Assembly (NCBI GenBank): GCA_034676805.1
Contig: JAXDDO010000010.1
Span: forward strand, 18,480 to 82,479
Reading direction: 5' to 3'
Origin: Anaerolineae bacterium
Lineage (GTDB): Bacteria; Chloroflexota; Anaerolineae; B4-G1; SLSP01
Length of the DNA: 64,000 nucleotides
The notes beneath the pieces were generated by a model, which saw nothing but the letters and a program-made list of their open reading frames with translations, was not told the DNA's origin and searched no databases. Both the position numbers and the translations under genes were made by a program. This document shows, piece after piece, positions 33,354 through 48,101 of this stretch (its first letter is position 1; every line of letters begins with the position of its first letter).

Positions 33354-35303
33354 TCACACCGAGGGCGCTGACCAGTGTAATAGGGCCTCCAGCGAGATGG
33401 CGCTCTCCCAGGGGCGGCAGCGGGTGCCCGCGGGGCGCCCATTGATGTAGTACTCGGCCCAGGCGCCAACCGGGTCGGCGAGCGTCAGCGTGGTCTCGTA
33501 GAACGCGGCGGCGAATGGATGGCGCAGCTCTGTCAGGGCGTAGAGAAGCAGGCCGTAGTCATAGCCGACGGCGGAGTCGGTCCTGCCCACCTTTGTCCCA
33601 TCCGCGTCCTGGTCTTGCCGTGAGGGCAGTTGCCCCGTTTTCTGGTAGCGAGCGACGAGCGCGTTGATCTGGGGTCGCAGATCCTCCGGCGGAAGCAGCC
33701 CGGTGTGGAAATAGAGCGGCGTCAGGCTCACCGACTGCAGCGCGTAGACCGTAGGTGGCGCGGCGGGAAAGGAACCAAGCGCCAGGCACGTGGGGCAGAC
33801 ATAGCGCCCTGTCTCGGTGTGCTCAGTCCACTCGATGCCGCGGAAGCGGCCCTCGGCGATGCAGCGCTCGCAGACGCCGTGGCGGAATCGCGGCAGCGCA
33901 GCGGACGCGGCCCGCTGAGGGTTGTTGGTGATCAATTGCCCGTCGCGCCAGAAGTTGCGGCGATAGCTGTCCTGGACGTGGTGCAGGGTTCGGTACGCGT
34001 CGGCCAGTCGCTCGTCGGGCCAGCGGCGGTGCTGCGCGATCCAGTCCAGCAACCGAGCGCCGCCATCGCAGAAGAGCAACGTCGCCTCCGCCGAGCCGTC
34101 GTTGAGCGTCGTGCGGGGCAGGATGCCACCGGCGACATAGGTCTCGTCGCCGTTGAAGGGCAGCATATCGTCGACCAGGTGCGGCACTTGCGCGTCCCAG
34201 GCCCACTCCAGCATCGGGAACACCGTGTCGAGGATCTCCTCGTCACCCCCGACCGCTGCCAAGTCGAAAGCTTGCCGGATCAGATAGCCCGTGATCTCGA
34301 CGGCGTCGTTCTCGTGGACGTGGAATGCGCCGTCCACCCCGAAGGCCTGGGCATTGTGGATGCGCCCGTGGCGCTGCCAGACGCCCCAGTAGAATTGGAG
34401 GATCTCGCGGGCCTGCGCAATCTGGCCCAGCGCCAGCAGACCGCGCGAGGTACCATACTGGTCGCGCACATACCCCATATGATAGGGATAGCCCGCCAGC
34501 ACACCGCCCTCGCGTGCCTGCTGCGCGCGGATGAGGACGGCGACGTCATCGCAGGTGCGCAGCAGGCGCGCTCGTTGGGGCAGGCCCTCTGGGAGGATGT
34601 CTTCCCAGTCCCTGCGGCTGCAAGCGAAGGCCTGCCACCAGGCTTGCGTGCGGGCGAGCAGGGCATCGGGAGGCGTATGGAGCGCGATCTCTGCGCCGGT
34701 AATGGCTTCCGGGTAGGCAGGTCCGCCCACCAGGAAGAGCCAGCTTTCGCCAGGTTCGCAGATCAGGTCGATCGTGTGCCCGGCTTGATCCACGACGGCC
34801 CGTGTCGGCCCGCGCCAGGCGATCTGATGGAAGATCGGGCCGGGAAACGGATAGGTGTGGTAGAACGGGAGCCCCGCGGGCGCCTGGAGCAGCAGGCCTC
34901 CGTCCGCCCCTGTCAATCGGGCACCGTTGTCGACAACCTGTGCGGGGACCGTAAGCGTCAGGCGGAAGCGCAGGGGGTCGGTTAGGCGCAGATGGCGTAC
35001 CAGGCAGGGCAGGTCCGCGTCGACGAAGTCGGTGATCTCGCCGGCCGGCGTTCCCGCTATGCGCAGCTGGTGAGTCCAGATCGCCGTGCCCGGCGTCCGG
35101 TGGCCGGACGCTGTGATGCGTTCAGGCATGGCGAGGGTAAGCTGGTAGAGCGAGGGCGCGCTGTAGGGAGGGCCAAAGACCTGGGCGAGGTTGGGGCCCT
35201 GGGCGTAGGCACACAATTGCCCGTTGCCCAGTGCGTGGATCGTGCCGTCATCGGTGTCTTCGCTGCTCCAGAGGCGCGCGGTGGCGTGTGGGTCTGTCTG
35301 CAT
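33354..35303 (-). CDS. Large conserved protein, possibly a six-hairpin (GH15-like) glycosidase fold, with a CxxC...CxxC insert
   Basis: 649-aa ORF of ordinary composition, last in the MFS operon. Has glucoamylase-like blocks (GYPYHMGYVRDQYGTSRGLLALG, FYWGVWQ). Function is uncertain. Confidence 0.55.
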   Translation of the reverse strand: MQTDPHATARLWSSEDTDDGTIHALGNGQLCAYAQGPNLAQVFGPPYSAPSLYQLTLAMPERITASGHRTPGTAIWTHQLRIAGTPAGEITDFVDADLPCLVRHLRLTDPLRFRLTLTVPAQVVDNGARLTGADGGLLLQAPAGLPFYHTYPFPGPIFHQIAWRGPTRAVVDQAGHTIDLICEPGESWLFLVGGPAYPEAITGAEIALHTPPDALLARTQAWWQAFACSRRDWEDILPEGLPQRARLLRTCDDVAVLIRAQQAREGGVLAGYPYHMGYVRDQYGTSRGLLALGQIAQAREILQFYWGVWQRHGRIHNAQAFGVDGAFHVHENDAVEITGYLIRQAFDLAAVGGDEEILDTVFPMLEWAWDAQVPHLVDDMLPFNGDETYVAGGILPRTTLNDGSAEATLLFCDGGARLLDWIAQHRRWPDERLADAYRTLHHVQDSYRRNFWRDGQLITNNPQRAASAALPRFRHGVCERCIAEGRFRGIEWTEHTETGRYVCPTCLALGSFPAAPPTVYALQSVSLTPLYFHTGLLPPEDLRPQINALVARYQKTGQLPSRQDQDADGTKVGRTDSAVGYDYGLLLYALTELRHPFAAAFYETTLTLADPVGAWAEYYINGRPAGTRCRPWESAISLEALLHWSAPSV

Positions 35304-35333
35304 GGGTGTAGTCCCCGGTTCTCTCTGCTTGTC

Positions 35334-37457
35334 TCAGTCGATCAGCACGGCGGCAGAGCAGGGCGGCAGTTCAATCCCTTGCTCCGCGCTATGCCATGCA
35401 CCATCGTCAACGAGTCGATAGCGATTCAGGCGTACACCGTCATCGAGCACAGCCTGGACCGTGATGGTCTGGTGTTCGTCGAAGTTGGCGATAACAACGC
35501 CCGGCTTGCCGGTGATGCGATTGATGAAGACGGCGTAGGGGTGATGCGGCTTGCCGTCGCAGGTGACAGCCGCGCCCACTTCGTGGCGGAACTCGCCGTC
35601 CCAGAAGTAGTCGCGCAGCTCGGTGCGCAGCGCATCCATCTGCTTCCCGTAGGCCATAGTCATCGGATAGTCGTCCAGGTGCCCCTTGAAGTTGTAGGGC
35701 TCGTAGCTGATCGAATAGCGGTAGAGCAGGCACTGGTTGACCATGTTGCGGTCGTCGAAGCCGGTCACGGCGGTAATGAGCGGGACATCGGGCAGCATGT
35801 AGCGGCTGAGGGGGATGTGGTGTTTGCTCTCGCTGCGGTGGTACGATACGTGGTAGGCCTCGAACTCCCAATCGTACGCCGCTTCAGCGGCGAAGAGGAA
35901 GTCCGGGTTGCGCTCGCGGGCGATGGCGGCGAAGCGCTGGATGAGCAGGCGGTCGTTGGCGTAGACCGGCGCGCCCGGGCGGTGCCCGTGGCTCTCGTCG
36001 AAGCAGAGCAGGGCCGGGGTGTGGTGCAGGCATTCATCGAAGAGAATGCCGTCGGCGCCGAGGTCGAGTGTCTTGCGGAACTCCGCCTCACAGATGCGCA
36101 GGTATTCCTCGCTCAAGAAGCACATCGGCACGAGGCGCTTGGTGTTGATGTCGAGCAACTGCGTCAGTGTCTGGTACTGGTAACCGGGGTGCACCTGATA
36201 GTCGCCGTGGGGATCCTTGATGGCGTACTTCACCAGCTCGTTGCGGAACCACTCGGTCGCCCGGTCGGCCCAGGTAAACTTCGAGAAGAGGATGAGCTTG
36301 ACGCCCATAGCTTGGATCTGGGCGATGGCTTCTTTGAGCTCTTCGAATGTGCCCAGCCGTGGGTCGGGGTCGTGCGAGGGATTTCCCTGATCCTGACCGC
36401 CGAAGTTCCAGCCGGTCAGTTGGATGGCCTTGACGCCATGCCGGGCGCATTCCTCTCCCACCTTGGCCAGCTCCCGGAAGGGAATGCGGAGCTCGTCCTC
36501 CGGAGAGTTGAGGTGGATCTGCTGCCACGCGTGGGGCCCGCGCACCCAGGCGGGCAGCTCCGGCGTCTCCATCCACGTGTTGCGCCAGGCCTTATAGATG
36601 TCCACACCATGCTGCCAGCCGCCCCGGAAGGCCTCGATTGCTACCGGAGTCAGCGCGCGAGCCTCGCCGGGCAGGATATAGGGGACGTGCACCGCGGCGA
36701 AGCGTGTCGCGACGTCGTGTCCGGCAATGGTGGGCGTCTCGGGCACGCGCGCATCGATCGAGCTCCCGTAGCCGGGACGTAACTCGGCGTGCCATGCGAC
36801 AAGTTCGGCGCTGGGCTCTGTCACGCCGACGTAGAGTCCCTGGTCGGCGCTGCGCAGCAGGATGTAGGGCGACATGGGCGTACCAACCCCCGCGCTCCAC
36901 TGGGCGACCTGGGTCGGATAGTCGATGCCGTAGTAGCCGCGCATGTTCTGGAAGGTGGGCCACATCGGCCACTCGCTTGCTGTGGCGTACTGATAGAGGA
37001 ACCCGTTGAACCACTCGGCGCCTTGGGGATGCGCCACATCGCCCAGGTAAGGGCAGTAGACGACCTCGACGGTGTAGGGGGAGCCGTTGTCGACCGTCAG
37101 CGCAAAGACGGCCTGCCGTGCACTTAGCCCAACACGCAGTGTGAGGGCGATATCGAGCGGACCGCCGATCTCTGACGTCACCCCATCCCATACAAAAGTG
37201 GCATTGCGGCCGTCAGCGGTGGCCTCCAGGGCGGTCAGCCGCTGTTTCTCGCCCAGGACGGCGTTGTTCCGTCGGCCGCTGAGCCAGTTGTCCTCCGATC
37301 GGCGCAGCGGCACCAGCAACCGGAATGAAAGCCCCAGGTGCGGGCGGTTGAGCACGGCCCAGCCGGTCTCCACGCTCGACAGGCCCACCAACGCGCCGGT
37401 CGCCCGATCAAAGGTCAGGCGCAGTGATTGATTCTCCAGGGTCAGCGTATCCATCAT
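35334..37457 (-). CDS. Glycoside-hydrolase-like TIM-barrel protein (uncharacterised family)
   Basis: 708 aa from ATG 37457, which follows a GGGAGGG RBS. The N-terminal beta domain opens LTLENQSLRLTFDRATGALVGL, and the central block is IQLTGWNFGGQDQGNPSHDPDPRLGTFEELK..I..IQAMGVKLILF. Family call is tentative. Confidence 0.55.
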   Translation of the reverse strand: MMDTLTLENQSLRLTFDRATGALVGLSSVETGWAVLNRPHLGLSFRLLVPLRRSEDNWLSGRRNNAVLGEKQRLTALEATADGRNATFVWDGVTSEIGGPLDIALTLRVGLSARQAVFALTVDNGSPYTVEVVYCPYLGDVAHPQGAEWFNGFLYQYATASEWPMWPTFQNMRGYYGIDYPTQVAQWSAGVGTPMSPYILLRSADQGLYVGVTEPSAELVAWHAELRPGYGSSIDARVPETPTIAGHDVATRFAAVHVPYILPGEARALTPVAIEAFRGGWQHGVDIYKAWRNTWMETPELPAWVRGPHAWQQIHLNSPEDELRIPFRELAKVGEECARHGVKAIQLTGWNFGGQDQGNPSHDPDPRLGTFEELKEAIAQIQAMGVKLILFSKFTWADRATEWFRNELVKYAIKDPHGDYQVHPGYQYQTLTQLLDINTKRLVPMCFLSEEYLRICEAEFRKTLDLGADGILFDECLHHTPALLCFDESHGHRPGAPVYANDRLLIQRFAAIARERNPDFLFAAEAAYDWEFEAYHVSYHRSESKHHIPLSRYMLPDVPLITAVTGFDDRNMVNQCLLYRYSISYEPYNFKGHLDDYPMTMAYGKQMDALRTELRDYFWDGEFRHEVGAAVTCDGKPHHPYAVFINRITGKPGVVIANFDEHQTITVQAVLDDGVRLNRYRLVDDGAWHSAEQGIELPPCSAAVLID

Positions 37458-37540
37458 CCCTCCCTCGTCTCCATTCACTCGTACGCATCTTTCATTCACA
37501 ATGAGGCGCTCCTCGGCCGCCGCGAGCCCCCTTCAGGCAA

Positions 37541-38821
37541 TCAGCCTGTTTCCTCGGCGACCCGGAAGATGCTGAACAGCGCCGCTGCCACAAGATGGAT
37601 GCCGCCGGCGACAAAGAAGACACCACGGATCCCGATCCAGCTCGAAAGCAGTGTGCCCAGCATCGGTGCGGCGAAGATCATAAGGCTGGCCAGCATCGTG
37701 TTGACGGCGATGAAGCTGGGCCGGCGGTCCGCCGGGCAGACTGCCAGTAACGTGTCGAAAAAGGAGAGGTTGACGCCGGTGACGAAGAATCCCTGAACGA
37801 GGGCGACCAGCGGCAGCCACACTTGACCTGGCACCAGCGCGGTAATCACCGGGTAAAACCCCACGCCAACGGTGCAGATGATGAGGGGGCGGAAATGGCC
37901 TTTGCGGCTTACGATCCGTCCCCACAACGCATAACCCGCGATGAGGGCGACCTGGTTCGTCGTCGTTTGCCAGCCGATCCACAGGTCTGAGGCACCCAGA
38001 TGCCGGATCCAATAGACGCTGTAGAGCGCTGTGGCCAGGTTCAGGCCCAGACGCAGCACCGTCGTTGTCAGCTCGTAGCGCACGAAGGCCGGCACCTGCA
38101 GGCTCCGCCAGTACGCACGGATCTGGCGCCCGATGGGCTGCGGTTCCACAGCCTGTGCCTGCGCTTGAACGTTCTCCGGGATGCGCATCAGGCCCCAGAC
38201 GATCATGCCCAACGAGCCCCCCACGAACGAGATGAGGAAGACGATCTGGTAGTTAAGCGGGAAGGGCAGCCGATCGAGCATGAACCCGAATGCGGCGACT
38301 GACACTGCCGTCACGATGCTCATCAGGGTCCAGCGCATTCCGTTGACGGCGGCGCGGCGATGGGGTGGAATGATCTCGGCAATGACCGCCATCCAGGATG
38401 ACTCGAGCAGCGCGTTGGCGATGCCCTTGACTGTCCAGAGGCCGATGATGAGCCCCACGAGCGCGTCATGGGCCAGAAAGGGCAGCAGCGCCGTGACGAG
38501 AATTGAGCCTCGGTGGAAGGCGCGGACGATGTTAGTGAACTTCACCAGGTCGCGCTGTCGTTGCACGATCTGGCCGGAGGGAATCGAGGAGAGCGCCAAG
38601 ACAATGGCGGGCAGTGAGGTCAGCAGGCTGACCTGCAACTCCGAAGCGCCCAGCCGCACGAGAAAAACCGAGATGAAGCTGAAAACGCCGCCGGTCATCA
38701 CGCCCTGGAGGGCAGTATCGACCGTGAAGTACAGGATGTTGCGGTTTTCGAGCGAGAGCTGCCCGGGTTGAAGCCACCGCACGTTTGCGCGCACGCCGCG
38801 CAGCACAGCTGAGAGCTGCAT
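37541..38821 (-). CDS. MFS transporter
   Basis: About 12 hydrophobic segments. Start trimmed to ATG 38821 (GAGG RBS). The track start 38938 would abut the tRNA. Confidence 0.8.
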   Translation of the reverse strand: MQLSAVLRGVRANVRWLQPGQLSLENRNILYFTVDTALQGVMTGGVFSFISVFLVRLGASELQVSLLTSLPAIVLALSSIPSGQIVQRQRDLVKFTNIVRAFHRGSILVTALLPFLAHDALVGLIIGLWTVKGIANALLESSWMAVIAEIIPPHRRAAVNGMRWTLMSIVTAVSVAAFGFMLDRLPFPLNYQIVFLISFVGGSLGMIVWGLMRIPENVQAQAQAVEPQPIGRQIRAYWRSLQVPAFVRYELTTTVLRLGLNLATALYSVYWIRHLGASDLWIGWQTTTNQVALIAGYALWGRIVSRKGHFRPLIICTVGVGFYPVITALVPGQVWLPLVALVQGFFVTGVNLSFFDTLLAVCPADRRPSFIAVNTMLASLMIFAAPMLGTLLSSWIGIRGVFFVAGGIHLVAAALFSIFRVAEETG

Positions 38822-38964
38822 GGTTGTAGGACCTCGGTGATAGTATTTGGTGTGATGGTAGCACAGGCGGGGGGATCTGGCTAGCCGGTGGCCGCTCTGG
38901 GATCCGCCGGTCTGATCGGCAAAAAAAGAGCCCGGCACATCAACGTGCCAGGCCGCCCAATCAA

Positions 38965-39038
38965 TGGGTCGTGCAGGATTCGAACCTGCGGCCCTGGGCT
39001 TAAAAGGCCCCTGCTCTGCCGGACTGAGCTAACGACCC
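38965..39038 (-). tRNA. tRNA-Lys (anticodon UUU)
   Basis: The minus strand reads GGGTCGTTAGCTCAGTCCGGCAGAGCAGGGGCCTTTTAAGCCCAGGGCCGCAGGTTCGAATCCTGCACGACCCA. It folds as a cloverleaf with a 7-bp acceptor stem, GCTC/GAGC D stem, anticodon loop CTTTTAA and GCAGG/CCTGC T stem with TTCGAAT loop. The 5' and 3' thirds are near-identical to E. coli tRNA-Lys. CCA is not encoded. Confidence 0.92.
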
Positions 39039-39049
39039 AAGTGGGCAGG

Positions 39050-39077
39050 AGTATAGCATGCGGGGATGGGAAGTCAA
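39050..39077 (-). promoter_or_regulatory. Promoter for tRNA-Lys (TTGACT-16-TATACT)
   Basis: Minus strand reads TTGACT (39077-39072), a 16-nt spacer, then TATACT (39055-39050). The -10 ends 11 nt before the mature tRNA 5' end. Confidence 0.6.
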
Positions 39078-39132
39078 ACTTACGGTTGTCGTTGTTGGAG
39101 GCCTGTCGCCAGGCCAACTTCATCCCAATCCT

Positions 39133-39167
39133 CGCCCCGAGTCTGTCCCTTCGACGGGCTCGGGGCG
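39133..39167 (-). terminator. Hairpin after repeat-protein gene A
   Basis: CGCCCCGAG (39133-39141) pairs with CTCGGGGCG (39159-39167), about 20 nt beyond the stop at 39187. Confidence 0.45.
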
Positions 39168-39186
39168 ATCCATCTGAAGCCACCTA

Positions 39187-39687
39187 TCAGTGGTAAGCTC
39201 CCGAAATGGCGGTCAGGCGCGCGACGTCCTCTCTGTGGGCGCGCATGCCCTCTGCGCGGGCCCTCGCATAGAACTCGGCGAGTGTGACAAACTGAGATCG
39301 TACGGGCGCCCGGCGATTGGCGTGGGGCCCGGCTATGGACGAAAGCCGTGCCACATTCTCCCTGTAAGCCTGTAGACCCTCCTCGCGTGCCCTTGCGTTG
39401 AGCTCGGCTAAGGTTGCCAGCCGGGGCTGCCTCGCCGCGAGCGCTCTCGCTTGGGCCCCGGATATGGCGGACAGTCTCACGAACTCAGAGCAGTAATCGA
39501 GTGCACTGGTCCTTGAGACCCCAGCGCAATGGTCGGCGGGCATCACCGAAAGGGGGGTCGACTCCGGGGCTCCCTGTGTTTGGAGGCGTATCAACAGCCC
39601 TCCGGTGAGCGCGATTGTCGTGATGCCCACAAGCAAAGCCCACCACCGTAGTGATCGTCTAGCTATCGGTCGTGTTTGGCGCGTCAA
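39187..39687 (-). CDS. Exported/membrane-anchored Ala/Arg-rich repeat protein, paralog A
   Basis: TTG start at 39687 lies 7 nt after AGGAGG. The N-terminus RRSLRWWALLVGITTIALTGGLLIRLQTQGA is a TM/signal anchor homologous to paralog B. Internal repeats include ARLSAISG, VARLSSIAG, VARLTAISG and LAE(L/F)(N/Y)ARAR(E/A)EG(L/M)(Q/R)A(Y/H)RE(N/D)VARL. Confidence 0.65.
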   Translation of the reverse strand: MTRQTRPIARRSLRWWALLVGITTIALTGGLLIRLQTQGAPESTPLSVMPADHCAGVSRTSALDYCSEFVRLSAISGAQARALAARQPRLATLAELNARAREEGLQAYRENVARLSSIAGPHANRRAPVRSQFVTLAEFYARARAEGMRAHREDVARLTAISGAYH

Positions 39688-39746
39688 TGCATGACCTCCT
39701 GTTGAACCTTCTCTGTCGCAGACCTCTGGTGTGGCCTACATCCTGC

Positions 39747-39803
39747 ATACATGATAAGGCTAGGTCGTTCTAGGGCGTCTGTTGGGGCGTTTTCTAGCGT
39801 GAT
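39747..39803 (-). promoter_or_regulatory. Conserved upstream block A: four phased ACGC boxes plus a -10-like TATCAT
   Basis: Minus strand reads ATCACGCTAGAAAACGCCCCAACAGACGCCCTAGAACGACCTAGCCTTATCAT. About 40 of 57 positions are identical, without gaps, to block B at 40555-40611. The ACG cores are spaced 10, 12 and 10 nt apart. The -10-like hexamer is at 39756-39751. Confidence 0.5.
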
Positions 39804-39860
39804 GCACGATGGTGAGTTTGGCGTGGGCCCAGATCTCGGCCGGCTGCGGCACGCAACTGA

Positions 39861-39890
39861 CCCCGGACGCGATGCCCATCGCGTCCGGGG
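39861..39890 (-). terminator. 14-bp hairpin after repeat-protein gene B
   Basis: CCCCGGACGCGATG pairs with CATCGCGTCCGGGG, about 28 nt beyond the stop at 39918. Confidence 0.5.
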
Positions 39891-39917
39891 CGGTGGCTTC
39901 AATGAGTGTGCGGTGTG

Positions 39918-40496
39918 TTAGCGGGCGAGGAAGGTCACCATCTCCGGTGACATACTGTCAGGGCTCGCGCCCAGCTCCCTAGCCAGGCCGGTCCAGCGCG
40001 CCGCGTCAGCCATCTGAGTGCGCGTAAGCCCATTGTAGCTGCCAATTCCGGTGTAGTGTTCCGCCAAAGCTGTAAGCCGCGCGGCATCGGCGTGGTGCGC
40101 GCGGGCCAGCCGGGCTGCTCGCGCAGCAGCGTAGGACTCAGCCAGAGCCGTGAGGCGTGCAGTCTCCGCTGCTCGTGCTCGAAGAAGATGTGACTCTGGC
40201 GGCAACGCCGGTCGACTCCCAAAGTAGAGCGCGATTCCCGTCAGCCGCGCGGCCTCTGCCGCCTGGGCGCGAGTAAGGTGGCTTGGGTTGACGGAAGCCT
40301 CATAGTAGGCCGCCAACCCGGTCAGCCGGGCGGCAGCGGCGATCTGAGCACGATCTGCGGTCTCAGGGCTGTTGCGGGCGCCTTGTGTCTGTGCCCGAAC
40401 CAACAGGCCTGCTAAGGCCAAGACCACGAGAAGTAGACCCAGTAACCCCCACCATCGCCATGATCGTCTGGTCGTAAACTGTGCGTGCTGTGTCAT
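39918..40496 (-). CDS. Exported/membrane-anchored Ala/Arg-rich repeat protein, paralog B
   Basis: The N-terminus RRSWRWWGLLGLLLVVLALAGLLVRAQTQGA is followed by five copies of an approximately 25-30-aa unit ending AARLTGLA..Y (AARLTGLAAYYEA, AARLTGIALYFG, TARLTALAESYAA, AARLTALAEHYTG, AARWTGLARELGA). Confidence 0.7.
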   Translation of the reverse strand: MTQHAQFTTRRSWRWWGLLGLLLVVLALAGLLVRAQTQGARNSPETADRAQIAAAARLTGLAAYYEASVNPSHLTRAQAAEAARLTGIALYFGSRPALPPESHLLRARAAETARLTALAESYAAARAARLARAHHADAARLTALAEHYTGIGSYNGLTRTQMADAARWTGLARELGASPDSMSPEMVTFLAR

Positions 40497-40554
40497 GGAA
40501 GCACCCCCCTGCTTGTCACCCTGTATTCTGGATGTCTCTCGGTGACTTACTAAG

Positions 40555-40611
40555 ATGCAGCATACGGCACGGGCGTCCTGCAGCGTATTGTGAGGCGTTC
40601 TCCAGCGTGAT
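40555..40611 (-). promoter_or_regulatory. Conserved upstream block B: four phased ACGC boxes plus a -10-like TATGCT
   Basis: Minus strand reads ATCACGCTGGAGAACGCCTCACAATACGCTGCAGGACGCCCGTGCCGTATGCT. The -10-like hexamer is at 40564-40559. The distal box abuts the divergent + strand TATAAT at 40631-40636, upstream of the SARP gene. Confidence 0.5.
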
Positions 40612-40740
40612 TTCCTGCTTCCATAAGTGCTATAATGACAAAAGGGTATATTGGTTGCGGATGTACTTGGGGGCTGACGACGGACTGGGCGACCTGTTCG
40701 TGCGATCGCGCCGGTGGTGTTCGTAGGCGGGAGGCGGTCG

Positions 40741-43700
40741 ATGATGATCCGGAAGGTGCTCCAGATCCGTGTGCTGGGGCAGTTTGACGTTCGCTGCGAT
40801 GATCGCGCGATCGGTATTTCCTCTCGGCCGGCGCAATCCCTCTTTGCCTACCTCGCGATGAACGCGGGGCTCACCCATCGCCGCGAGAAGCTGGCGGGCC
40901 TACTCTGGCCCGATTCGACGGAGAGCAACGCCCGGACATATCTCCGCCAGGCGCTTTGGCGGGTGCGGAAGGCGATGGAAACCGCTGGGATCAGCTGTGA
41001 GACTTACCTGGAGGTCGATGACCTGGCGCTGCGTTTCCCCGCTGAGGCCCCGTACTCGCTCGATGCTGCGGTGCTTCTCGAGTTGTCTCCTTCCGGGGGT
41101 TGGTCTGTGGAAGAACTCCAAGCCGCGGTGTCCGCCTACCGGGGAGAGTTTCTCCCAGGGTTCTACGACGAGTGGACGGTGGTCGAGCGTGAGCGGCTCC
41201 TGGCCGCCTTTGATCGCAAGATGCGGCTGCTGACCGACCATCTCCAGGCGCAGCAGCGCTGGAATGATGTCCTTGTGTGGGCTGAGCGTTGGGTCAGCCT
41301 GAGCCGGGTTCCGGAGCCGGCCTATGTCGCGATGATGACCGCCCATGCCGGGTTGGACGACATTCCCGCGATGCACATGACGTACGAGCGTCTTGCGGAG
41401 GCGTTGGATCGTGAGCTGGGGATGGCGCCGTCGGACGAGGTTTGCAGCTTGCGGGAACGCCTTGGGCATGGAACACCCCCTCTGCTTGTGCCGACCGTGC
41501 CCCTGGTCGAGACCGAGGCGTGGAGCTGTGCCCCTTCAGGGCTCGCCCCGACAACGGGTTTGCCTCCTTACAAGGGCCTAGCTTTCTACAATGTCGAGGA
41601 CACGGATCTCTACTTCGGGCGCGAGCGGCTGGTCGGCGACCTTGTCGATCGGCTGCATACCTATCCACCGCTGCTGATCATCGTGGGGGCGTCGGGCTCT
41701 GGCAAGTCCTCGCTCCTGCGGGCCGGTCTCGTGCCAGCCATCATGCGCGGCCCAGAGGGTCAACGCTGGGCCGTTAGGATTCTAGACCCTACGGCGCATC
41801 CGCTGCAGGCATTGGCGATTGCTCTCGTTGGTCAAGATGGCGCCAACGAAACCCTAGCTATGGAAAAACCGCTGGAAGAGGATCTCGGTATCCGACGCGC
41901 AGTTGAAGCGCTTCTGGAGCGGGAAGGTGCAAGCCGGATGCTCTTGGTCGTTGACCAGTTCGAGGAGTTGTTCACGCTTTGCCGGGATGAGCAGGAGCGC
42001 AGCGCCTTTGTCGATGCGCTTGTGCAGGGGATTGATCCGTCGATAGATGGTGTCCTGAGCGTCGTAATAGCTTTGCGAGCTGACTTCTACGACCGTTGTG
42101 CTGACTTCCCGGCTTTGCGCGATGCACTCAGTGACCATCAGGTCTACGTGGGGGCGATGACACCTCAGGAGTTGCGCCGGGCGATCGAGGAGCCAGCCGC
42201 GCGCGGAGGATGGACCTTCGAGCCGGGACTCGTTGACTTGATCCTGCACGACGTTCGGAACGAACCGGGCGCATTGTCGCTGCTATCGCATGCGCTCCTG
42301 GAGACCTGGCAGCGTCGCACGGGATGCATGCTGACGCTTGCGGGTTATGCCGAAGCTGGCGGAGTACGCGGTGCGGTTACCCGGACAGCGGAGGCGTTCT
42401 ACAACCGCCGGTTGTCGCCGCTACAGCAAGGGATTGCGCGCGCCATCTTCCTCCGGCTGACTGAACCAGGTGAAGACGGGCCGCCCACACGTCGGCGGGT
42501 GGCGCGCCACGAACTAGCGCTATCCGGGGTTGCGCCTGCGGAGGTCACGCACGTGCTTGATCTCCTGTCTGACGCCCGCCTGGTTACGCTTGGGATCGAG
42601 ACGGTCGAGGTGACCCACGAGGCCCTGATTCGTGAATGGCCCACCTTGCGGCGTTGGCTCGCCGAGGATCGTGAAGGGCTCAGAATTCACCATCACCTCA
42701 CCGAGGCTGCACAGGCTTGGGAAGCTTTAGATCGTGACCCGGGCGCGCTCTATCGCGGGACACGGCTTGTCCAGGCCGAGTTCTGGGCACAATCGCATGC
42801 GATGACACTCAATCCTTTGGAATACGAGTTCCTCGAGGCCGCTGTGGCCCAGCGAACGGGCGAGGTCGCCGAACATCAGGCGCAACAAGAACGCGATATC
42901 GAGGCGGCACGGCGGGCGGCGGAGGCCGAACGGGCTCGGGCCGAGGCTCACGCGCAATACGGGCACCGTCTCCGCTGGTTGGTCTTGGGGCTCAGTTGCG
43001 CGCTCTTGATGGCTGTGCTCGCGGTAGGTCTGGCGATTGAGCAACGGAGTCGTGCTGAGAGGCAGGCGCACCTCGCCCGGGCCCGTGAGTTAGCGGCGGC
43101 CTCAGTCAGTGCTCTCACCGTTGACCCGGAGTTGAGCATTCTCCTGGCCTTGCGTGCCGTATCCGAGACGACGGCAAGTGACCTACCCGCCGTACCGGAG
43201 GCGGTGGAATCCTTGCACAAAGCTGTGATAACGTCGCGGCTGCGCGCTGTGTTCACGGGGCAGGGACAGGAGGTCACCGATCTGGCTTTGAGCCCAGACG
43301 GGAAGTGGCTGGGTGTAGCGGGCCGCGGCGGGGCGGTGTACGTTTGGGACGTGAAGACCGGCCAAGCGTTGCGCGTCTTGTCAAGTGGCGCATTCCATGC
43401 GATCACTGCCGTCGCCTTCGATCCCCAAGGCACGATGGTGGCCTCGGTCGATGATCGAGGAACCATCACGATCTGGGACTGGGCCGAGGGGCACCCACTG
43501 GAGACGATGCAGGGCAGTTCGTCCGTCAGGGCCTTGGTCTTCAGCCCTTCAGGAACCCTTGTCGCTTTCTTGCGGTATGGTGAGAGTGTTCATATCTGGG
43601 ACGTTGTCACCGGCCAGATCGTCGCTGAAGTTGGCGACAGCGCGCAGCAGCTTGTGGATCTAGCTTTCTCGCCAGACGGAACCATGCTGGCCGTGGCAAG

Positions 43701-45210
43701 TCTCCGCGATGGCGTATCGCTGTGGGATATGGCTACACGTGCACGGCTGGCCACCATTGCAGGCGCCGCGGGTGACATAACACGGATCGCTCTCAGTCCG
43801 GATGGCGATCGTATGGTGACGGCAGGCCTGGATGGCACGGCGCGCATATGGCGGCTCGATAGGCCCGGCAGCGCCGGTGAACAGCTGGCGTTGCATGGGC
43901 ATCAAGGCGCTATTCTGAGCATCGCGTTCAGCAGCGATGGTCAGTGTATCGCGACAGGTGGGATCGACCGCAAGGCAAGAGTCTGGGATGCGCAGACCGG
44001 ACAGGGGTTGCTAACGCTGGCGGGACATAGGAGCGATGTGGCGAGGGTAGCCTTCGCACCGGACGGCGATCTTTTGTACACCGCAAGCGGGGATGGCACG
44101 GTGCGCGCATGGAACCTCGGTCTCAACGCGGAGTATGCCACGCTCGCCGTGCCGGATGGTGTCTTCCGCTTCGCGTTCAGCCCCTCAGGAGACGTCATAG
44201 CGGCTGGCGTCGGGGAAACTGGCACGGTGTGGGTCTGGGACGTCCGTACGAAGGGGCAGAGTCGCGTCTTGGCGACCGGCCATCGTGCGCGTGTGAGCAG
44301 CCTCGCTTTCAGTGCGGATGGACGGTGGGTGGCGACGGCGAGTGATGATGCAACCGCTCGCGTTCTGCGTGCCGATACGGGGGAGACCTCGATCGTCCTG
44401 GAGGGGCACAGCGACTGGGTCAACGACATTGCCTTCAGTGCCGACAGCCTGCTTGTCGTGACGGCCAGCCGTGACCAGACTGCCAGTCTCTGGAGCGTTC
44501 CCACAGGGCCGCGAGTGCGTACTCTCGTGCCGCGGAATGCTGATGTGGTTGCGGTTGCGTTCCCCCTACTGGCAGATCCCACTACCTACAGCACCGTGAC
44601 CGCCACGACCAATGGAATAGCCGCCGACCTGCTGGTCATTGGGAGCACTGCGGGTGTCGACATCTGGCGCGCAGACGGTTCCCGACAGTTGCTTGCTCTC
44701 AGGGTGGGCCCTGGCGTTGTGAACGACGTTGCCATTAACCCGGACGGGACGGCGATCGCGGCTGCCCTGGGAGACGGGACAGTCCAAGTTTGGTCGCTTG
44801 ACCGGGAAGCAGGGGGGGAACTCCGCGTGGCGAGCGAGCGTTTCCTCACCGGTCACGCAGCCCAAGTTGTGGGCATTGCGTTCAGCCCCGATGGAGCACA
44901 GCTGGCTACAGCTAGCATGGACGGCACCGCCCGCATCTGGGAGGTCGCGACGGGTAGCTCGCTTCTATCACTGCATGTAGCCGACGATACGTGGTTGAGC
45001 AGTGTTGCATTCAGTCCCGACGGTCGTCTTCTGGCCGTCAGCAGCGGCCACGGGATTCATCTCTACCTGACGCACCTCGACGACCTTGCGAGCCTGGCTC
45101 GTAGCCGGCTAACGCGTGGGTTCGCGGTAGAGGAGTGCGCGCGTTATCTGCGCGAGGAGGCCTGTCCCGTCCTCGAAGAAGGCGTGACTGTGCCGGCCTC
45201 GGCTCCCTGA
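40741..45210 (+). CDS. SARP(OmpR-type wHTH + BTAD)-STAND NTPase-TM helix-14xWD40 regulator
   Basis: N-terminal SARP signature (IRVLGQFDVRCDDRAIG...RPAQSLFAYLA...REKLAGLLWPD....AR..LRQALWRVRK) and a BTAD domain. P-loop IIVGASGSGKSSLLRAGL with Walker B LLVVDQFEE, a coiled/charged linker, and one TM helix (LRWLVLGLSCALLMAVLAVGLAI, about nt 42970-43038). These are followed by 14 WD40 units. GGGAGG RBS precedes ATG 40741; the track GTG 40714 is 9 codons longer. Confidence 0.9.
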   Translation: MMIRKVLQIRVLGQFDVRCDDRAIGISSRPAQSLFAYLAMNAGLTHRREKLAGLLWPDSTESNARTYLRQALWRVRKAMETAGISCETYLEVDDLALRFPAEAPYSLDAAVLLELSPSGGWSVEELQAAVSAYRGEFLPGFYDEWTVVERERLLAAFDRKMRLLTDHLQAQQRWNDVLVWAERWVSLSRVPEPAYVAMMTAHAGLDDIPAMHMTYERLAEALDRELGMAPSDEVCSLRERLGHGTPPLLVPTVPLVETEAWSCAPSGLAPTTGLPPYKGLAFYNVEDTDLYFGRERLVGDLVDRLHTYPPLLIIVGASGSGKSSLLRAGLVPAIMRGPEGQRWAVRILDPTAHPLQALAIALVGQDGANETLAMEKPLEEDLGIRRAVEALLEREGASRMLLVVDQFEELFTLCRDEQERSAFVDALVQGIDPSIDGVLSVVIALRADFYDRCADFPALRDALSDHQVYVGAMTPQELRRAIEEPAARGGWTFEPGLVDLILHDVRNEPGALSLLSHALLETWQRRTGCMLTLAGYAEAGGVRGAVTRTAEAFYNRRLSPLQQGIARAIFLRLTEPGEDGPPTRRRVARHELALSGVAPAEVTHVLDLLSDARLVTLGIETVEVTHEALIREWPTLRRWLAEDREGLRIHHHLTEAAQAWEALDRDPGALYRGTRLVQAEFWAQSHAMTLNPLEYEFLEAAVAQRTGEVAEHQAQQERDIEAARRAAEAERARAEAHAQYGHRLRWLVLGLSCALLMAVLAVGLAIEQRSRAERQAHLARARELAAASVSALTVDPELSILLALRAVSETTASDLPAVPEAVESLHKAVITSRLRAVFTGQGQEVTDLALSPDGKWLGVAGRGGAVYVWDVKTGQALRVLSSGAFHAITAVAFDPQGTMVASVDDRGTITIWDWAEGHPLETMQGSSSVRALVFSPSGTLVAFLRYGESVHIWDVVTGQIVAEVGDSAQQLVDLAFSPDGTMLAVASLRDGVSLWDMATRARLATIAGAAGDITRIALSPDGDRMVTAGLDGTARIWRLDRPGSAGEQLALHGHQGAILSIAFSSDGQCIATGGIDRKARVWDAQTGQGLLTLAGHRSDVARVAFAPDGDLLYTASGDGTVRAWNLGLNAEYATLAVPDGVFRFAFSPSGDVIAAGVGETGTVWVWDVRTKGQSRVLATGHRARVSSLAFSADGRWVATASDDATARVLRADTGETSIVLEGHSDWVNDIAFSADSLLVVTASRDQTASLWSVPTGPRVRTLVPRNADVVAVAFPLLADPTTYSTVTATTNGIAADLLVIGSTAGVDIWRADGSRQLLALRVGPGVVNDVAINPDGTAIAAALGDGTVQVWSLDREAGGELRVASERFLTGHAAQVVGIAFSPDGAQLATASMDGTARIWEVATGSSLLSLHVADDTWLSSVAFSPDGRLLAVSSGHGIHLYLTHLDDLASLARSRLTRGFAVEECARYLREEACPVLEEGVTVPASAP
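43261..45080 (+). repeat. 14 WD40 repeats (two predicted 7-bladed propellers), coding
   Basis: Repeat ends: VYVWD, ITIWD, VHIWD, VSLWD, ARIWR, ARVWD, VRAWN, VWVWD, ARVLR, ASLWS, VDIWR, VQVWS, ARIWE, IHLYL. Confidence 0.85.
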
Positions 45211-45223
45211 GTTGGCCTCTGTC

Positions 45224-45715
45224 TCAGACTGTAAGCGCCAGGAACTCCGGGTTACCTGACAGATGCACCGTGTCGAGGCGGTGTTTGCCCAGGTAGAAGA
45301 GATGGGCCGGGCAGCGGCAGTCGGAGGCGCCGAAGCGGGGGATGATGACCCGGAAGTCCGGGCATTCGGAGAGGGCTTGCGCCCACACACACTCAAGGTG
45401 CGCGCCCGGAGCCAGCCATAGGGCGACGGGGCACGCATGAGATCGCAGGTAATCGATGTGCCAGCGGGGACGGGGGCTGCCCATCACGTGGCGCCCCACC
45501 CTGGCTCGCAACCCCCCGGGACCCCACGCGCTGCCCACATAGAGGTAGACACCGTGCGGGAACGCCCACGTTCCCAACGCCCCGACGGGGATGCGTAGCA
45601 GGGCCTGCGCCTGCGCAGCGGGCACTTCCAGGGCGAGCCCATAGGTGCCCGGTGCAGGTGGCAGGGATCGCGTCAGGCCAACAAGAGGCGGTTCCAGAGC
45701 TTGCCCCCAAGCCAC
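45224..45715 (-). CDS. DUF123/GIY-YIG-like nuclease family protein
   Basis: Motif string G.Y.Y.GSA......R..RH......RWHIDYL is typical of DUF123. The start is uncertain: GTG 45715 overlaps the upstream small gene by 43 nt. Confidence 0.65.
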   Translation of the reverse strand: MAWGQALEPPLVGLTRSLPPAPGTYGLALEVPAAQAQALLRIPVGALGTWAFPHGVYLYVGSAWGPGGLRARVGRHVMGSPRPRWHIDYLRSHACPVALWLAPGAHLECVWAQALSECPDFRVIIPRFGASDCRCPAHLFYLGKHRLDTVHLSGNPEFLALTV

Positions 45716-45912
45716 GTGAGGGCAATCCCCAGGCCCAGGACAAAGCTACCGGCGACGTCCATCAAGTTGATCGAGTGCTGAGGATCGAGTTGCCAGACCT
45801 GCGCGCCCTCCTGTGAGGGCGGCAGCGCGAGCGTGATGAGTCCCAGCAGGATGAAGAGGACCCCGGCGGCGCTGGTTGCGACCACCAGCCAATTTCCCCG
45901 CTGTAAGGCCAC
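45673..45912 (-). CDS. Small two-TM membrane protein (79 aa)
   Basis: The GTG start overlaps the Trm112 TAG stop by 1 nt (TAGTG). It has two hydrophobic helices (WLVVATSAAGVLFILLGLITLAL and VAGSFVLGLGIALTWLG). The longer track ORF (to 46119) overlaps Trm112 out of frame. Confidence 0.5.
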   Translation of the reverse strand: MALQRGNWLVVATSAAGVLFILLGLITLALPPSQEGAQVWQLDPQHSINLMDVAGSFVLGLGIALTWLGGKLWNRLLLA

Positions 45913-46160
45913 TAGTCCTCCTCGGGTGGCGGGACGGGTAGGTCCTCGACCGCGGTGGCCATCCACTTCTCGCCAGTCTCGATCAGCATAACGGGGATGT
46001 CCTCCCGAATCGGATACTTCCGCCCGCAGTCCTGGCAGACCAGCCAGGAGTCGTTCCGCACGAGATCGAGTATGCCAGGATCTTCCTTGTCCGTGCGGCG
46101 GGTTTCCCCACTGACGCAATAAGGGCAGCGCAGAATCTCCAGCAGATCGGCGTCAACCAT
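45912..46160 (-). CDS. Trm112/UPF0434 family zinc-ribbon protein
   Basis: LLEILRCPYC...LVCQDCGRKYPIREDIPVML is the family signature. AGGAGGAAGC RBS precedes the ATG. Confidence 0.8.
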   Translation of the reverse strand: MVDADLLEILRCPYCVSGETRRTDKEDPGILDLVRNDSWLVCQDCGRKYPIREDIPVMLIETGEKWMATAVEDLPVPPPEED

Positions 46161-46210
46161 GCTTCCTCCTAATCAGGATCGCTCCGTGTGTCGTCGCGAT
46201 AGGCGGCGAA

Positions 46211-46238
46211 AGTATACCACGTCGACAGGGGCGTGCAA
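46211..46238 (-). promoter_or_regulatory. Putative promoter (TTGCAC-16-TATACT) for the Trm112 operon
   Basis: Minus strand reads TTGCAC (46238-46233), a 16-nt spacer, then TATACT (46216-46211), about 50 nt upstream of ATG 46160. Confidence 0.4.
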
Positions 46239-46454
46239 TCGTTGTAGCTGGATTGGCTACGTCGGGGCTCGAGCGGTATGGGCGATGTTTTCGGACATGC
46301 GGGCGCCCTTGTGTGAGCCATCGCTGGACATACGGCAGCGTTGCCCTGTCTGGACCTTGGGGCGGAGGACCGACAGGACAATCCAACACGGTGTGGGATT
46401 CATTGTACACCCGGTTGGGAGGTTGCCGAACCGGACGGGGGCCGGCAGAGAGCG

Positions 46455-46483
46455 AAGCCGGCGTTGGGTCTGAACGCCGGCTT
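46455..46483 (-). terminator. Hairpin after the 139-aa membrane protein gene
   Basis: AAGCCGGCGTT pairs with AACGCCGGCTT across a 7-nt loop, 30 nt beyond the stop at 46514. There is no U-tract. Confidence 0.45.
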
Positions 46484-46513
46484 GACAAGAGCAGCCGCGG
46501 ACCCGGGACTATG

Positions 46514-46933
46514 TCAGTCTTCGCCGCCGACGATGGTGAAGCTGCGCTCGCCGGAGGCGGGGAGCCATGGATTTGGTGGTGCTGTGCCGTAAGGGTTCTG
46601 CTGCCCATACCCAGGGAGCGCCTGGGGGGTGACGACGATGACGGGGGGCTGGGAGGGGTAGGGCGCCGGCTGGCGTTGGGCGAGCTCGGCACGGCGGGCA
46701 TCCTCACGGCGCCAGATGAGAAGACCGAGGGCGAGGGTGGGGAGCATCGCCATCACGCCGCAGGAGAGGCCGATGAGGAGCGCGAGGGAATCGCGGCTGA
46801 GGCGCTGGGTGACGATGATGGCGGCGGTGATGGCGAAGAGCGCGGCCAGCAGGGCGCAGAAGCGGGCCAGGCGGCGTCCCAGGGGGAGCGCGGGCTCCTG
46901 CGGGGACGGGTAGTCATATCGATCGCGTCGCAT
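46514..46933 (-). CDS. Small membrane protein (2 TM) with Pro/Gln-rich C-terminal tail
   Basis: AGGAGG RBS precedes ATG 46933. Has two TM helices (FCALLAALFAITAAIIV and LALLIGLSCGVMAMLPTLALGLLIW) and the tail QRQPAPYPSQPPVIVVTPQALPGYGQQNPYGTAPPNPW. It lies 62 nt downstream of the FtsK-like gene. Confidence 0.6.
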   Translation of the reverse strand: MRRDRYDYPSPQEPALPLGRRLARFCALLAALFAITAAIIVTQRLSRDSLALLIGLSCGVMAMLPTLALGLLIWRREDARRAELAQRQPAPYPSQPPVIVVTPQALPGYGQQNPYGTAPPNPWLPASGERSFTIVGGED

Positions 46934-46995
46934 AGGTGAACCTCCTGTTCGGTTGACATCTGACGCGTAGCGGGAGCCGGGGCGCTCGCCACGCG

Positions 46996-48069: not shown

Positions 48070-48083
48070 AGGTCGTCCTTCTT

Positions 48084-48101
48084 ATAGAACATACGTTCTA
48101 T
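48084..48101 (-). promoter_or_regulatory. Cheo-type LexA (SOS) box ATAGAAC-N4-GTTCTAT
   Basis: Palindrome arms at 48084-48090 and 48095-48101; the GAAC-N4-GTTC core is at 48087-48098. It lies 6 nt downstream of the -10 (over the expected +1) and 14 nt upstream of ATG 48069. Confidence 0.6.

Follow-up and report, generated by a model that had tools for sequence, protein, structure and literature searches.

Work on SARPs and the operators they bind has been confined almost entirely to actinomycetes, in which they act as switches for antibiotic production. The small SARPs ActII-ORF4, DnrI, and RedD act at TCGAGxx-like repeats, and EmbR from Mycobacterium tuberculosis is the structural prototype of the SARP domain. 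The DNA-binding domain of SARPs is of the same fold class as that of the OmpR/PhoB family, whose winged helices sit head to tail on direct repeats of about 11 bp that replace the −35 element. Here we describe two promoter regions in a 64,000-nucleotide stretch of DNA from an Anaerolineae bacterium (Chloroflexota; contig JAXDDO010000010.1, positions 18,480 to 82,479). We will call this whole stretch the window, and coordinates are positions within it unless another locus is named. Each promoter region has four phased boxes with ACGC-type cores, upstream of a gene for a small membrane-anchored protein, and a large regulator with a SARP domain is encoded divergently. We think it quite probable that the boxes are operators for a SARP domain and that the two promoters depend on an activator.

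At promoters that are activated by SARPs, the direct repeats have a period of 11 or 22 bp, and the 3′ repeat lies 8 bp from the −10 element (PMC10936776). AfsR binds as a side-by-side dimer to the 22-bp afs box (−40 to −19), which has two 11-bp repeats; the dimer takes the place of the −35 contact and touches sigma region 4, the beta flap, and the alpha subunit's C-terminal domain (PMC10936776). The NOD and TPR domains of AfsR inhibit its SARP domain (PMC10936776), and an activation motif has been described in the NOD of AfsR (bioRxiv 10.64898/2026.09.02.748808). The SARP target AfsS has just 63 amino acids and is encoded by a small gene that adjoins afsR (PMC6988585). PimR binds cooperatively to three heptamers with 4-nt spacers, with 22-nt boxes of two repeats as the unit (PMC5930380).

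The sequence-only reading of the window had described two upstream regions that match without gaps at about 40 of 57 positions, four boxes with cores 10, 12, and 10 nt apart, a last box that ends 7 bp before a −10-like hexamer, and a third box where a −35 would be. All of these held up. On the minus strand, 39803–39747 (copy A) and 40611–40555 (copy B) matched at 40/57 positions in a gapless pairwise alignment. Outside the blocks, identity was 9/57 in the 57 nt upstream and 16/57 in the 57 nt downstream; and in 30 shuffles of the two upstream regions, the best gapless 57-nt match had 25–30 identities. The genes downstream (gene B and then gene A) are in tandem on the minus strand, and their products are paralogous (BLASTP, E = 2e-12) with 30% identity and long gaps, so the promoter block is better conserved than the coding sequence.

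In each copy, the four ACG[C/A] cores start at positions 4, 14, 26, and 36 of the block. This 10-12-10 spacing places box 3 exactly 22 bp from box 1, and box 4 exactly 22 bp from box 2. The boxes in copy A are TCACGCT, AAACGCC, AGACGCC, and GAACGAC (cores at 39797..39800, 39787..39790, 39775..39778, and 39765..39768, minus strand); the last of these has a degenerate core, ACGA. The boxes in copy B are TCACGCT, GAACGCC, ATACGCT, and GGACGCC (cores at 40605..40608, 40595..40598, 40583..40586, and 40573..40576, minus strand). The predicted −10 hexamers are TATCAT in copy A (39751..39756) and TATGCT in copy B (40559..40564), both on the minus strand. Both hexamers lie 8 nt past the 4-nt core of box 4, which is 7 nt if measured from the end of ACGNC. 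Given a 17-bp spacer, box 3 is at the exact position of a −35 hexamer in both copies, and neither promoter has one: GACGCC in copy A matches TTGACA at 1/6 positions and TACGCT in copy B matches at 2/6. The host does use ordinary sigma-70-type −35 and −10 elements, as judged from the promoter of a tRNA-Lys(UUU) gene that lies downstream of gene A (tRNA at 38964–39039, minus strand; promoter TTGACT-16-TG-TATACT at 39077–39050), so it is meaningful that the small genes have no −35.

Within the window, the arrays are unique. Allowing up to two mismatches, the four-box pattern matches only the two blocks in the 64 kb (both strands). A generic array detector (at least three ACG cores spaced 10–12 nt apart, the last starting 11–13 nt before TAnnnT) also found only blocks A and B. 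A search of the window against Rfam matched only the tRNA and gave no RNA element that would explain the blocks. A plus-strand terminator was called at 39766–39789, inside array A; we rejected this call, which arises artefactually from the GCGT repeats and a T-run.

The regulator (40741..45210, plus strand) is divergent from gene B and is encoded by the only SARP gene within the window. It has a SARP domain at roughly residues 1–250, comprising a winged helix-turn-helix and a BTAD domain, followed by an nSTAND1 NTPase and about 14 WD40 repeats. The list of open reading frames begins this gene at GTG 40714, but the true start is likely ATG 40741 (ATGATG), which follows GGGAGG: the product then begins MMIRKVLQIRVLGQFDV and lines up with the starts of its homologues (MLxVRLLGQF...). 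BTAD (PF03704) matches residues 132–249 of the open reading frame from 40714 with E = 2.4e-11 (44.6 bits vs. a cut-off of 22.1), nSTAND1 has E = 2.8e-130, and multiple WD40 or beta-propeller models match residues ~840–1460. A phmmer search with the N-terminal 281 residues found no match among PDB sequences. A profile of 32 homologues matched AfsR (E = 1.6e-10) and EmbR (E = 3e-7). We also modelled the N-terminal domain with AlphaFold, using 29 homologues (mean pLDDT 88, pTM 0.81). In a fold search with this model, the only significant PDB matches were EmbR (2ff4 and 2fez) and the SARP domain of AfsR in transcription-initiation complexes (8k60 and 8hvr). These matches span 254–258 columns, with the winged helix-turn-helix included, and have TM scores of 0.72–0.81 and about 20% identity; the best is 2ff4_B (EmbR; E = 3e-9, TMq 0.73, 258 columns). 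The regulator is therefore a large SARP with an NLR-like layout, and an architectural variant of AfsR rather than its orthologue.

The locus resembles afsR and afsS of Streptomyces coelicolor in several ways. Both have a large regulator that joins a SARP domain to a STAND/NOD NTPase and a repeat sensor, and both have a 22-bp operator unit of two repeats that overlaps the spacer and a poor −35. In both, the target, a putative one in the window, is an adjacent gene for a small protein; and some Chloroflexota loci even have the tandem order of afsR and afsS. The N-terminal 255 residues of the regulator fold like 8k60 and 8hvr. But the window is from Chloroflexota instead of Actinomycetota, and the SARP domains are just ~20% identical. 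There are four boxes here (two 22-bp units, spaced 10-12-10) instead of two, the core is ACGC instead of the AfsR/PHO-type repeat, and the sensor is nSTAND1 with WD40 instead of NB-ARC with TPR. The targets here are membrane-anchored helical-repeat proteins of 166 and 192 amino acids; they resemble AfsS in their place in the genetic logic, and we do not claim homology. And no antibiotic gene cluster lies near this locus: we found no biosynthetic gene cluster on either side of the SARP gene (33354–38938 and 45224–48092 were examined).

Other described systems share parts of this arrangement. PimR at pimM in Streptomyces natalensis binds direct repeats of a heptamer, more than two in number and 11 bp apart, and has a single adjacent target, a 22-nt binding unit of two repeats, and cooperative binding that needs at least two monomers (PMC5930380); its operators have three repeats and, in a secondary operator, two, and not a 10-12-10 array of four boxes. 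PimR also differs in its consensus, its C-terminal LuxR-type module, and its setting in actinomycete secondary metabolism. At the targets of ActII-ORF4, DnrI, and RedD, the direct heptamers are one helical turn apart with the proximal one ~8 bp from the −10 (PMC10936776), but these regulators consist of the SARP domain alone, are encoded within gene clusters, and control antibiotic pathways. OmpR and PhoB at pho-box promoters also place winged helices head to tail on direct repeats in the position of the −35. They differ from the regulator in the window in that it has no receiver domain, and has BTAD, STAND, and WD40 modules instead of control by phosphorylation; also, the arrays we describe co-localise with SARP genes. 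EmbR, which is the best structural match to the modelled N-terminal domain, has a C-terminal FHA domain and is controlled by a Ser/Thr kinase, and it is not known to have a comparable four-box operator.

Preferential conservation of the ACGC positions in related genomes had been set as a test beforehand, and the comparison did not refute the SARP-operator reading. Close relatives of the small protein are few: 13 were within reach of a word-indexed search, all from metagenomes or from metagenome-assembled genomes (MAGs) of Anaerolineae, and we compared their contigs (numbered L001 and so on). L006, L008, L010, and L013 each have the small gene in divergent orientation to a gene for a protein with a start like that of the window's regulator, and in L006 this neighbour was confirmed to contain BTAD and nSTAND1. 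The intergenic DNA of these four loci is otherwise unalignable with the window, yet the same array is present, with its cores, its phasing, and the 8-nt distance to TAnnnT. The array is ATAACGCTGAAAAACGCCATCGGAGACGGTGAGCATACGCGGGTTTGGTAAGAT in L006 and ATCACGCTAAGGGACGCTGCCAGAGACGCTAAGAGTACATCAATCTGCTAGTAT in L013; in L008 and L010 it is AATACGCTGAATAACGCT, then a degenerate box 3, AAACGC, 8 nt, and TACAGT or TATATT. When ~128,000 positions in the window were ranked with a two-block weight matrix from these four loci alone (mean score −66), site B came first (23.4) and site A second (5.2). A weak match to this matrix at +55019 (score 0.1) was set aside; it is absent with the independent model from regulator loci that is described below.

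Other loci have variants of the array. L002 has five ACG cores at exact 11-bp steps, then 8 nt and TATCCT, and L012 has three ACGT cores and ACTC at 11-bp steps, then 8 nt and TACCCT; both of these adjoin more distant SARP-like genes. L011 has three AACGx boxes, and L004 is ambiguous. By contrast, the gene that diverges from the homologous small gene in both L001 and L015 encodes a regulator with an XRE-type helix-turn-helix (in L001, where the gene is complete, NB-ARC and TPR are also present), and there is no ACG array in the upstream regions of L001 (7834–8001) or L015 (361–528). Instead, these carry GTGNCAC (GTGACA/GTGGCAC) repeats or palindromes, including a perfect palindrome in L015 (GGTGGCACTTAGTGCCACC), and the element is followed by TACAGT. 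In these comparisons, the type of operator follows the DNA-binding domain of the neighbouring regulator and not the target gene. The same family of small proteins appears to be wired to two unrelated classes of STAND regulators.

We also noticed that one of the predicted proteins of L008 (P0005; 879–960) has its deposited start, TTG at 879, within the box array. Its N-terminus as deposited is probably too long: the alignment and a Shine-Dalgarno sequence favour an ATG that lies 78 nt downstream.

The arrays can also be found without reference to the small genes. A search with the SARP domain gave 239 matches at E ≤ 1e-5, mostly 45–55% identical and under the names Anaerolineae, Anaerolineales, and Promineifilaceae; and GTDB representative genomes contain at least 573 confirmed relatives of the domain. 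For statistics on the arrays, we used the best 78 of the at least 573 Chloroflexota loci (571 kb in total), which were chosen by homology of the SARP domain alone. The generic detector found 30 arrays in these 78 loci, and 20 of them have four cores. Order-2 Markov resamples of the same loci gave 0.35 arrays on average and none with four cores, and the reversed but uncomplemented sequences gave 5 arrays, again none with four cores. Twenty of the 30 arrays are on the divergent strand, 95–350 nt upstream of the regulator; about 10 of these divergent arrays cluster at 165–185 nt, and the distance in the window is 177 nt. Several arrays lie ~100 nt past the stop codon of the regulator and point in the same direction, which is the gene order of afsR-afsS. 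With a composite model that left out each locus in turn, 55 of the 78 loci scored above the highest score from the Markov versions (16.0).

A model that was trained only on the regulator-anchored loci identifies the two sites in the window: site A scored 30.3, site B scored 24.9, and the next-best real position scored 4.7. The maxima from ten Markov versions of the window were 4.6–13.4. Among held-out loci, L006, L008, L010, and L013 scored 29.5–56.8, while the two loci with XRE-type regulators scored 0.0 and −5.1. The regulators that have arrays carry diverse sensors, including NB-ARC and TPR; AAA_16 and TPR; a Ser/Thr kinase with AAA_16 and TPR; and, in the window, nSTAND1 and WD40. Because the sensors vary, the array goes with the SARP domain and not with the sensor.

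The anatomy of the arrays was examined in 24 that have four cores. The commonest spacing is 10-12-10, as in the window (11 of 24), and the others differ from it by one base. The distance from the last core to the −10 hexamer is 8 nt in 17 of the 24, 9 nt in 6, and 7 nt in 1. The odd boxes (1 and 3) favour [T/C]ACGcT while the even boxes (2 and 4) favour [A/G]ACG[c/g]c, so each array reads as two tandem 22-bp units, each with two dissimilar half-sites 10 bp apart. Copy B in the window is a perfect alternation of the two types; in copy A, box 1 is of the odd type and box 2 is of the even type. The −10 hexamer usually follows tGc, which resembles an extended −10. After the hexamer, there is often a G at +1 and CA at +6/+7 (18 and 21 of the 24), and in most loci an open reading frame led by a Shine-Dalgarno sequence starts 55–80 nt downstream. 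These features back up the assignment of the −10. The CA, a dinucleotide typical of start sites, is probably the site of initiation. Copy A shares the family's [G/C]CAGGAT-like sequence with CA (GTATGCAGGATG), in which AGGAT are extra conserved bases. Its transcription would start near 39744 (the A of GCAGG, 7 nt downstream of the hexamer), and transcription from copy B would start near 40552, give or take 2 nt. Both predicted leaders are ~56 nt.

The box sequences may also follow the regulators. We compared the residue in the recognition helix that is equivalent to T88 of AfsR with the base on the 5′ side of ACG. Histidine at this position went with C in 5/5 distal boxes, asparagine went with G, and glutamine was mixed. 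The p value is 0.035 with no correction for phylogeny, which confounds the comparison, and some loci escaped the regular expression. This covariation, which is suggestive only, would favour the pairing of each regulator with its own array.

A separate observation about L043 is that it has at least three exact tandem copies of the 11-bp unit CATACGCGGCG and then CATACGCT (~3894–3950, minus strand). This operator looks like it grew by tandem duplication.

We propose that both small-gene promoters in the window have, in place of a −35 region, an operator that is bound by the SARP domain of the divergent STAND regulator (40741–45210). The four direct repeats of this operator would all lie on the same face of the helix and would form two 22-bp units in tandem ([T/C]ACGCT plus [A/G]ACGCC). 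The regulator would be made from its own extended −10 promoter and would rest in an auto-inhibited state. A signal that is read by the WD40 repeats would lead to nucleotide exchange and oligomerisation of the nSTAND1 module, and four SARP domains could then bind head to tail on the DNA, as two side-by-side dimers. The proximal dimer, on boxes 3 and 4, would replace the −35 contact and recruit RNA polymerase, as AfsR does at afsS. If the −10 hexamer is at −12 to −7, then boxes 3 and 4 are at about −36 to −20, which is the same place as the afs box. The distal dimer, on boxes 1 and 2, would add cooperativity from one 22-bp step upstream. The output would be transcription of the two paralogous small membrane-anchored proteins with helical repeats.

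That the boxes are SARP operators was also the suggestion of the sequence-only reading, and it is now strongly supported by comparison. The N-terminal domain has the SARP fold; the arrays are associated with SARP genes and conserve ACGC; the held-out models rank the two sites in the window first and second; and the geometry (direct repeats of ~11 bp with the proximal one ~8 bp from the −10), which the earlier reading had given, matches the published rule (PMC10936776). From these observations, we infer binding, its stoichiometry, and activation rather than repression.

Several results do not fit so well. No array above the null was found in 23 of the 78 regulator loci. Box 4 of copy A reads ACGA instead of ACGC. 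The family commonly has a TG extension before the −10, which both promoters in the window lack, and in copy B the CA start motif at +6/+7 is missing. The winged helix-turn-helix is backed by the fold only, as the match to Trans_reg_C from Pfam is below threshold (16.5 bits vs. 26.2, E = 0.009). The positions that copies A and B share outside the cores and the −10 are not enriched for those that are informative in the family (p = 0.19), and some of the identity (40/57) may be residual or specific to these paralogues. By informal comparison, the box is unrelated to the consensus for actinomycete SARPs (TCGAGxx or the AfsR/PHO-type repeat); this speaks against a shared specificity but not against a shared mechanism. 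Lastly, the sequence of the recognition helix (ARxxLRxALWRxRK) hardly varies within a very large family of paralogues, so it is possible that the cognate regulator is a paralogue encoded elsewhere in the genome, or that there is cross-talk.

We also considered that the arrays might be genuine operators for another protein, either a paralogous SARP-STAND regulator from elsewhere in the genome or a response regulator of the OmpR/PhoB type. The near-invariance of the recognition helix across hundreds of paralogues means that many of them could read the ACGC cores, and it is well established that the winged helices of the OmpR family share the fold and this class of promoter architecture. There is even a precedent in Streptomyces, where PhoP and AfsR compete at afsS (PMC6988585). 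Nevertheless, we consider this explanation unlikely. Arrays were found beside the SARP genes in 55/78 loci, with a preferred distance and orientation, and homologues of the small genes that are next to XRE-type regulators lack the array. Also, where one MAG has the arrays of two regulators (L024 and L086), the flanking bases differ, and they tend to follow the variant of the recognition helix. This fits with cognate pairing.

Another explanation is that the SARP regulator does bind the boxes but acts as a repressor, which would occupy the −35 and the spacer and block the polymerase until a signal releases it. The boxes span −57 to −20, which overlaps the polymerase, and box 1 of copy B abuts the −35 position of the regulator's own promoter. 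However, there is no −35 to occlude at either promoter (matches of 1/6 and 2/6), whereas the tRNA promoter of the same host has a good one. To our knowledge, all of the characterised SARPs with this geometry are activators. And the hallmark of complexes in which SARPs activate is that the register to the −10 is fixed at 8 bp (PMC10936776). Repression therefore seems quite unlikely to us.

That the blocks are just a residue of tandem duplication, with coincidental phasing of ACGC, is very improbable and effectively refuted: although the genes are tandem paralogues and, outside the cores, the positions that A and B have in common are not those that are informative in the family, the block retains 40/57 identity beside coding sequences at 30% amino acid identity and flanks at random levels (9/57 and 16/57), the cores, phasing, and distance to the −10 recur in unalignable intergenic DNA of many genomes, and both the held-out scoring and the finding of 30 arrays instead of the expected 0.35 speak against it.

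The gene for the regulator has a putative extended −10, TGCTATAAT (40628..40636, plus strand), in which TATAAT at 40631–40636 follows TGC, and TG[C/T]TATA[A/C]T is found upstream of the regulator in most of the related loci. The sequence-only reading had noted that the distal box of copy B lies at the −35 position of this divergent promoter, which would allow autoregulation. The geometry is right: on the plus strand, box 1 ends where a −35 would begin, given a 17-bp spacer. But with an extended −10, a −35 is perhaps not needed, and the overlap is not conserved. Box 1 and the −10 of the regulator are 22 nt apart in the window, but the gap is 9 nt in L026 and L043, 29 nt in each of L035, L038, L048, L060, and L091, and 45–100 nt elsewhere. 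We therefore rejected autoregulation via a fixed overlap as a conserved feature, although autoregulation is possible at the window's locus. We also noticed that nearly all of the regulators in the family (the window and L017–L091) have a strong extended −10, TGCTATACT or TGTTATAAT, together with a T-rich run (TTTTC) right after box 1, on the regulator's strand; this suggests that the regulators are expressed constitutively and independently of a −35.

The putative targets in the window are genes A and B. Gene A (39187..39687, minus strand) encodes 166 amino acids from a TTG that is 7 nt after AGGAGG, with a predicted N-terminal membrane helix and helical repeats of the type AARLxxLAxxY. Gene B (39918..40496, minus strand) begins with ATG and encodes 192 amino acids, with a predicted N-terminal membrane helix (residues 9–38 of the model) and all-helical repeats of the type RAQAAEAARLTGLAxYY. 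Both proteins have a basic stretch, a hydrophobic helix, and then Ala/Arg-rich helical repeats, and neither has a match in Pfam or NCBIfam. In its model, protein B has a membrane helix and then long helices; the overall confidence is low (pTM 0.34). The family is large, with 763 clusters (at 50% identity) at E ≤ 1e-3 and 301 at E ≤ 1e-10.

Members of this family are encoded in 12 of the 78 regulator loci. More generally, the open reading frames downstream of the arrays mostly encode 60–200 amino acids with one membrane helix and short tandem repeats. The repeats in other putative targets include RGEWTTG (L027 and L033), DYxxRHP (L069 and L081), and DTRYEAIQEW. In L026, L043, L063, L082, and L086, the targets are unannotated proteins of ~65 amino acids with a C-terminal membrane helix. 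The locus in the window could thus be one instance of an undescribed module that extends across the Chloroflexota, in which hundreds of NLR-like SARP regulators with varied sensors would each control an adjacent gene for a small single-pass membrane protein with short repeats, via a four-box operator, while differences in the recognition helix and the flanking bases would insulate the pairs from each other. We put the chance that this broader pattern is correct at somewhat short of even.

SARP operators with such geometry are already known and are textbook knowledge in Streptomyces. What is new is the phylum, the ACGC box, the layout of four boxes in two units, the nSTAND1-WD40 sensor, and the class of target; the arrangement also appears to be general for a very large and unstudied family of regulators. 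Full-text searches found no literature that links SARPs to regulation in Chloroflexota (Chloroflexi) or Anaerolineae, and a 2026 survey of AfsR-like proteins covers only actinomycetes.

By itself, the window gives a well-supported but ordinary cis-regulatory annotation; it is the wider pattern that gives it moderate interest. If the pattern is true, then the logic of AfsR and AfsS is an ancient and widely used design instead of a speciality of actinomycetes, and the small proteins with repeats form a new class, either of effectors or of partners in signalling. There is now a concrete model for the operator, with its sequence, its spacing, and its register to the −10, and a predicted class of targets for a family of NLR-like transcription factors (at least 573 relatives) in a poorly cultured phylum. 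The proposal links the regulator to an unannotated family of small membrane proteins (763 clusters), would enable the prediction of regulons in Chloroflexota MAGs, and would enable the study of how near-identical DNA-binding domains avoid cross-talk. The trick that AfsR uses for activation could be transferred to the regulators of Chloroflexota.

The organism in the window seems to be represented only by metagenome data in the collections that we searched. A 4.6-kb contig from a JGI metagenome (Ga0123330; our L007) corresponds to 36359–40973 of the window at 99.9% identity, with 5 mismatches and none in the promoters; it is from the same organism and so gives no comparative information. Among the 599 pattern matches listed for the small gene in GTDB representative genomes, 0 were confirmed, and the closest regulator among the GTDB representative matches listed is at most 53% identical to the regulator in the window.

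Between gene B and promoter A there is a perfect GC-rich hairpin, CCCCGGACGCGAT-GGGC-ATCGCGTCCGGGG (39861..39890, minus strand). It has no run of T and was not called by the terminator scan. It is probably the end of the transcript of gene B, in which case gene A would have its own promoter. Downstream of gene A, the tRNA-Lys gene ends with a hairpin and T-run terminator (38954–38929). Other neighbours are a DUF6259 protein (35334–37499), an MFS transporter (37541–38938), a DUF123 protein (45224–45715), and several open reading frames that lack Pfam matches.

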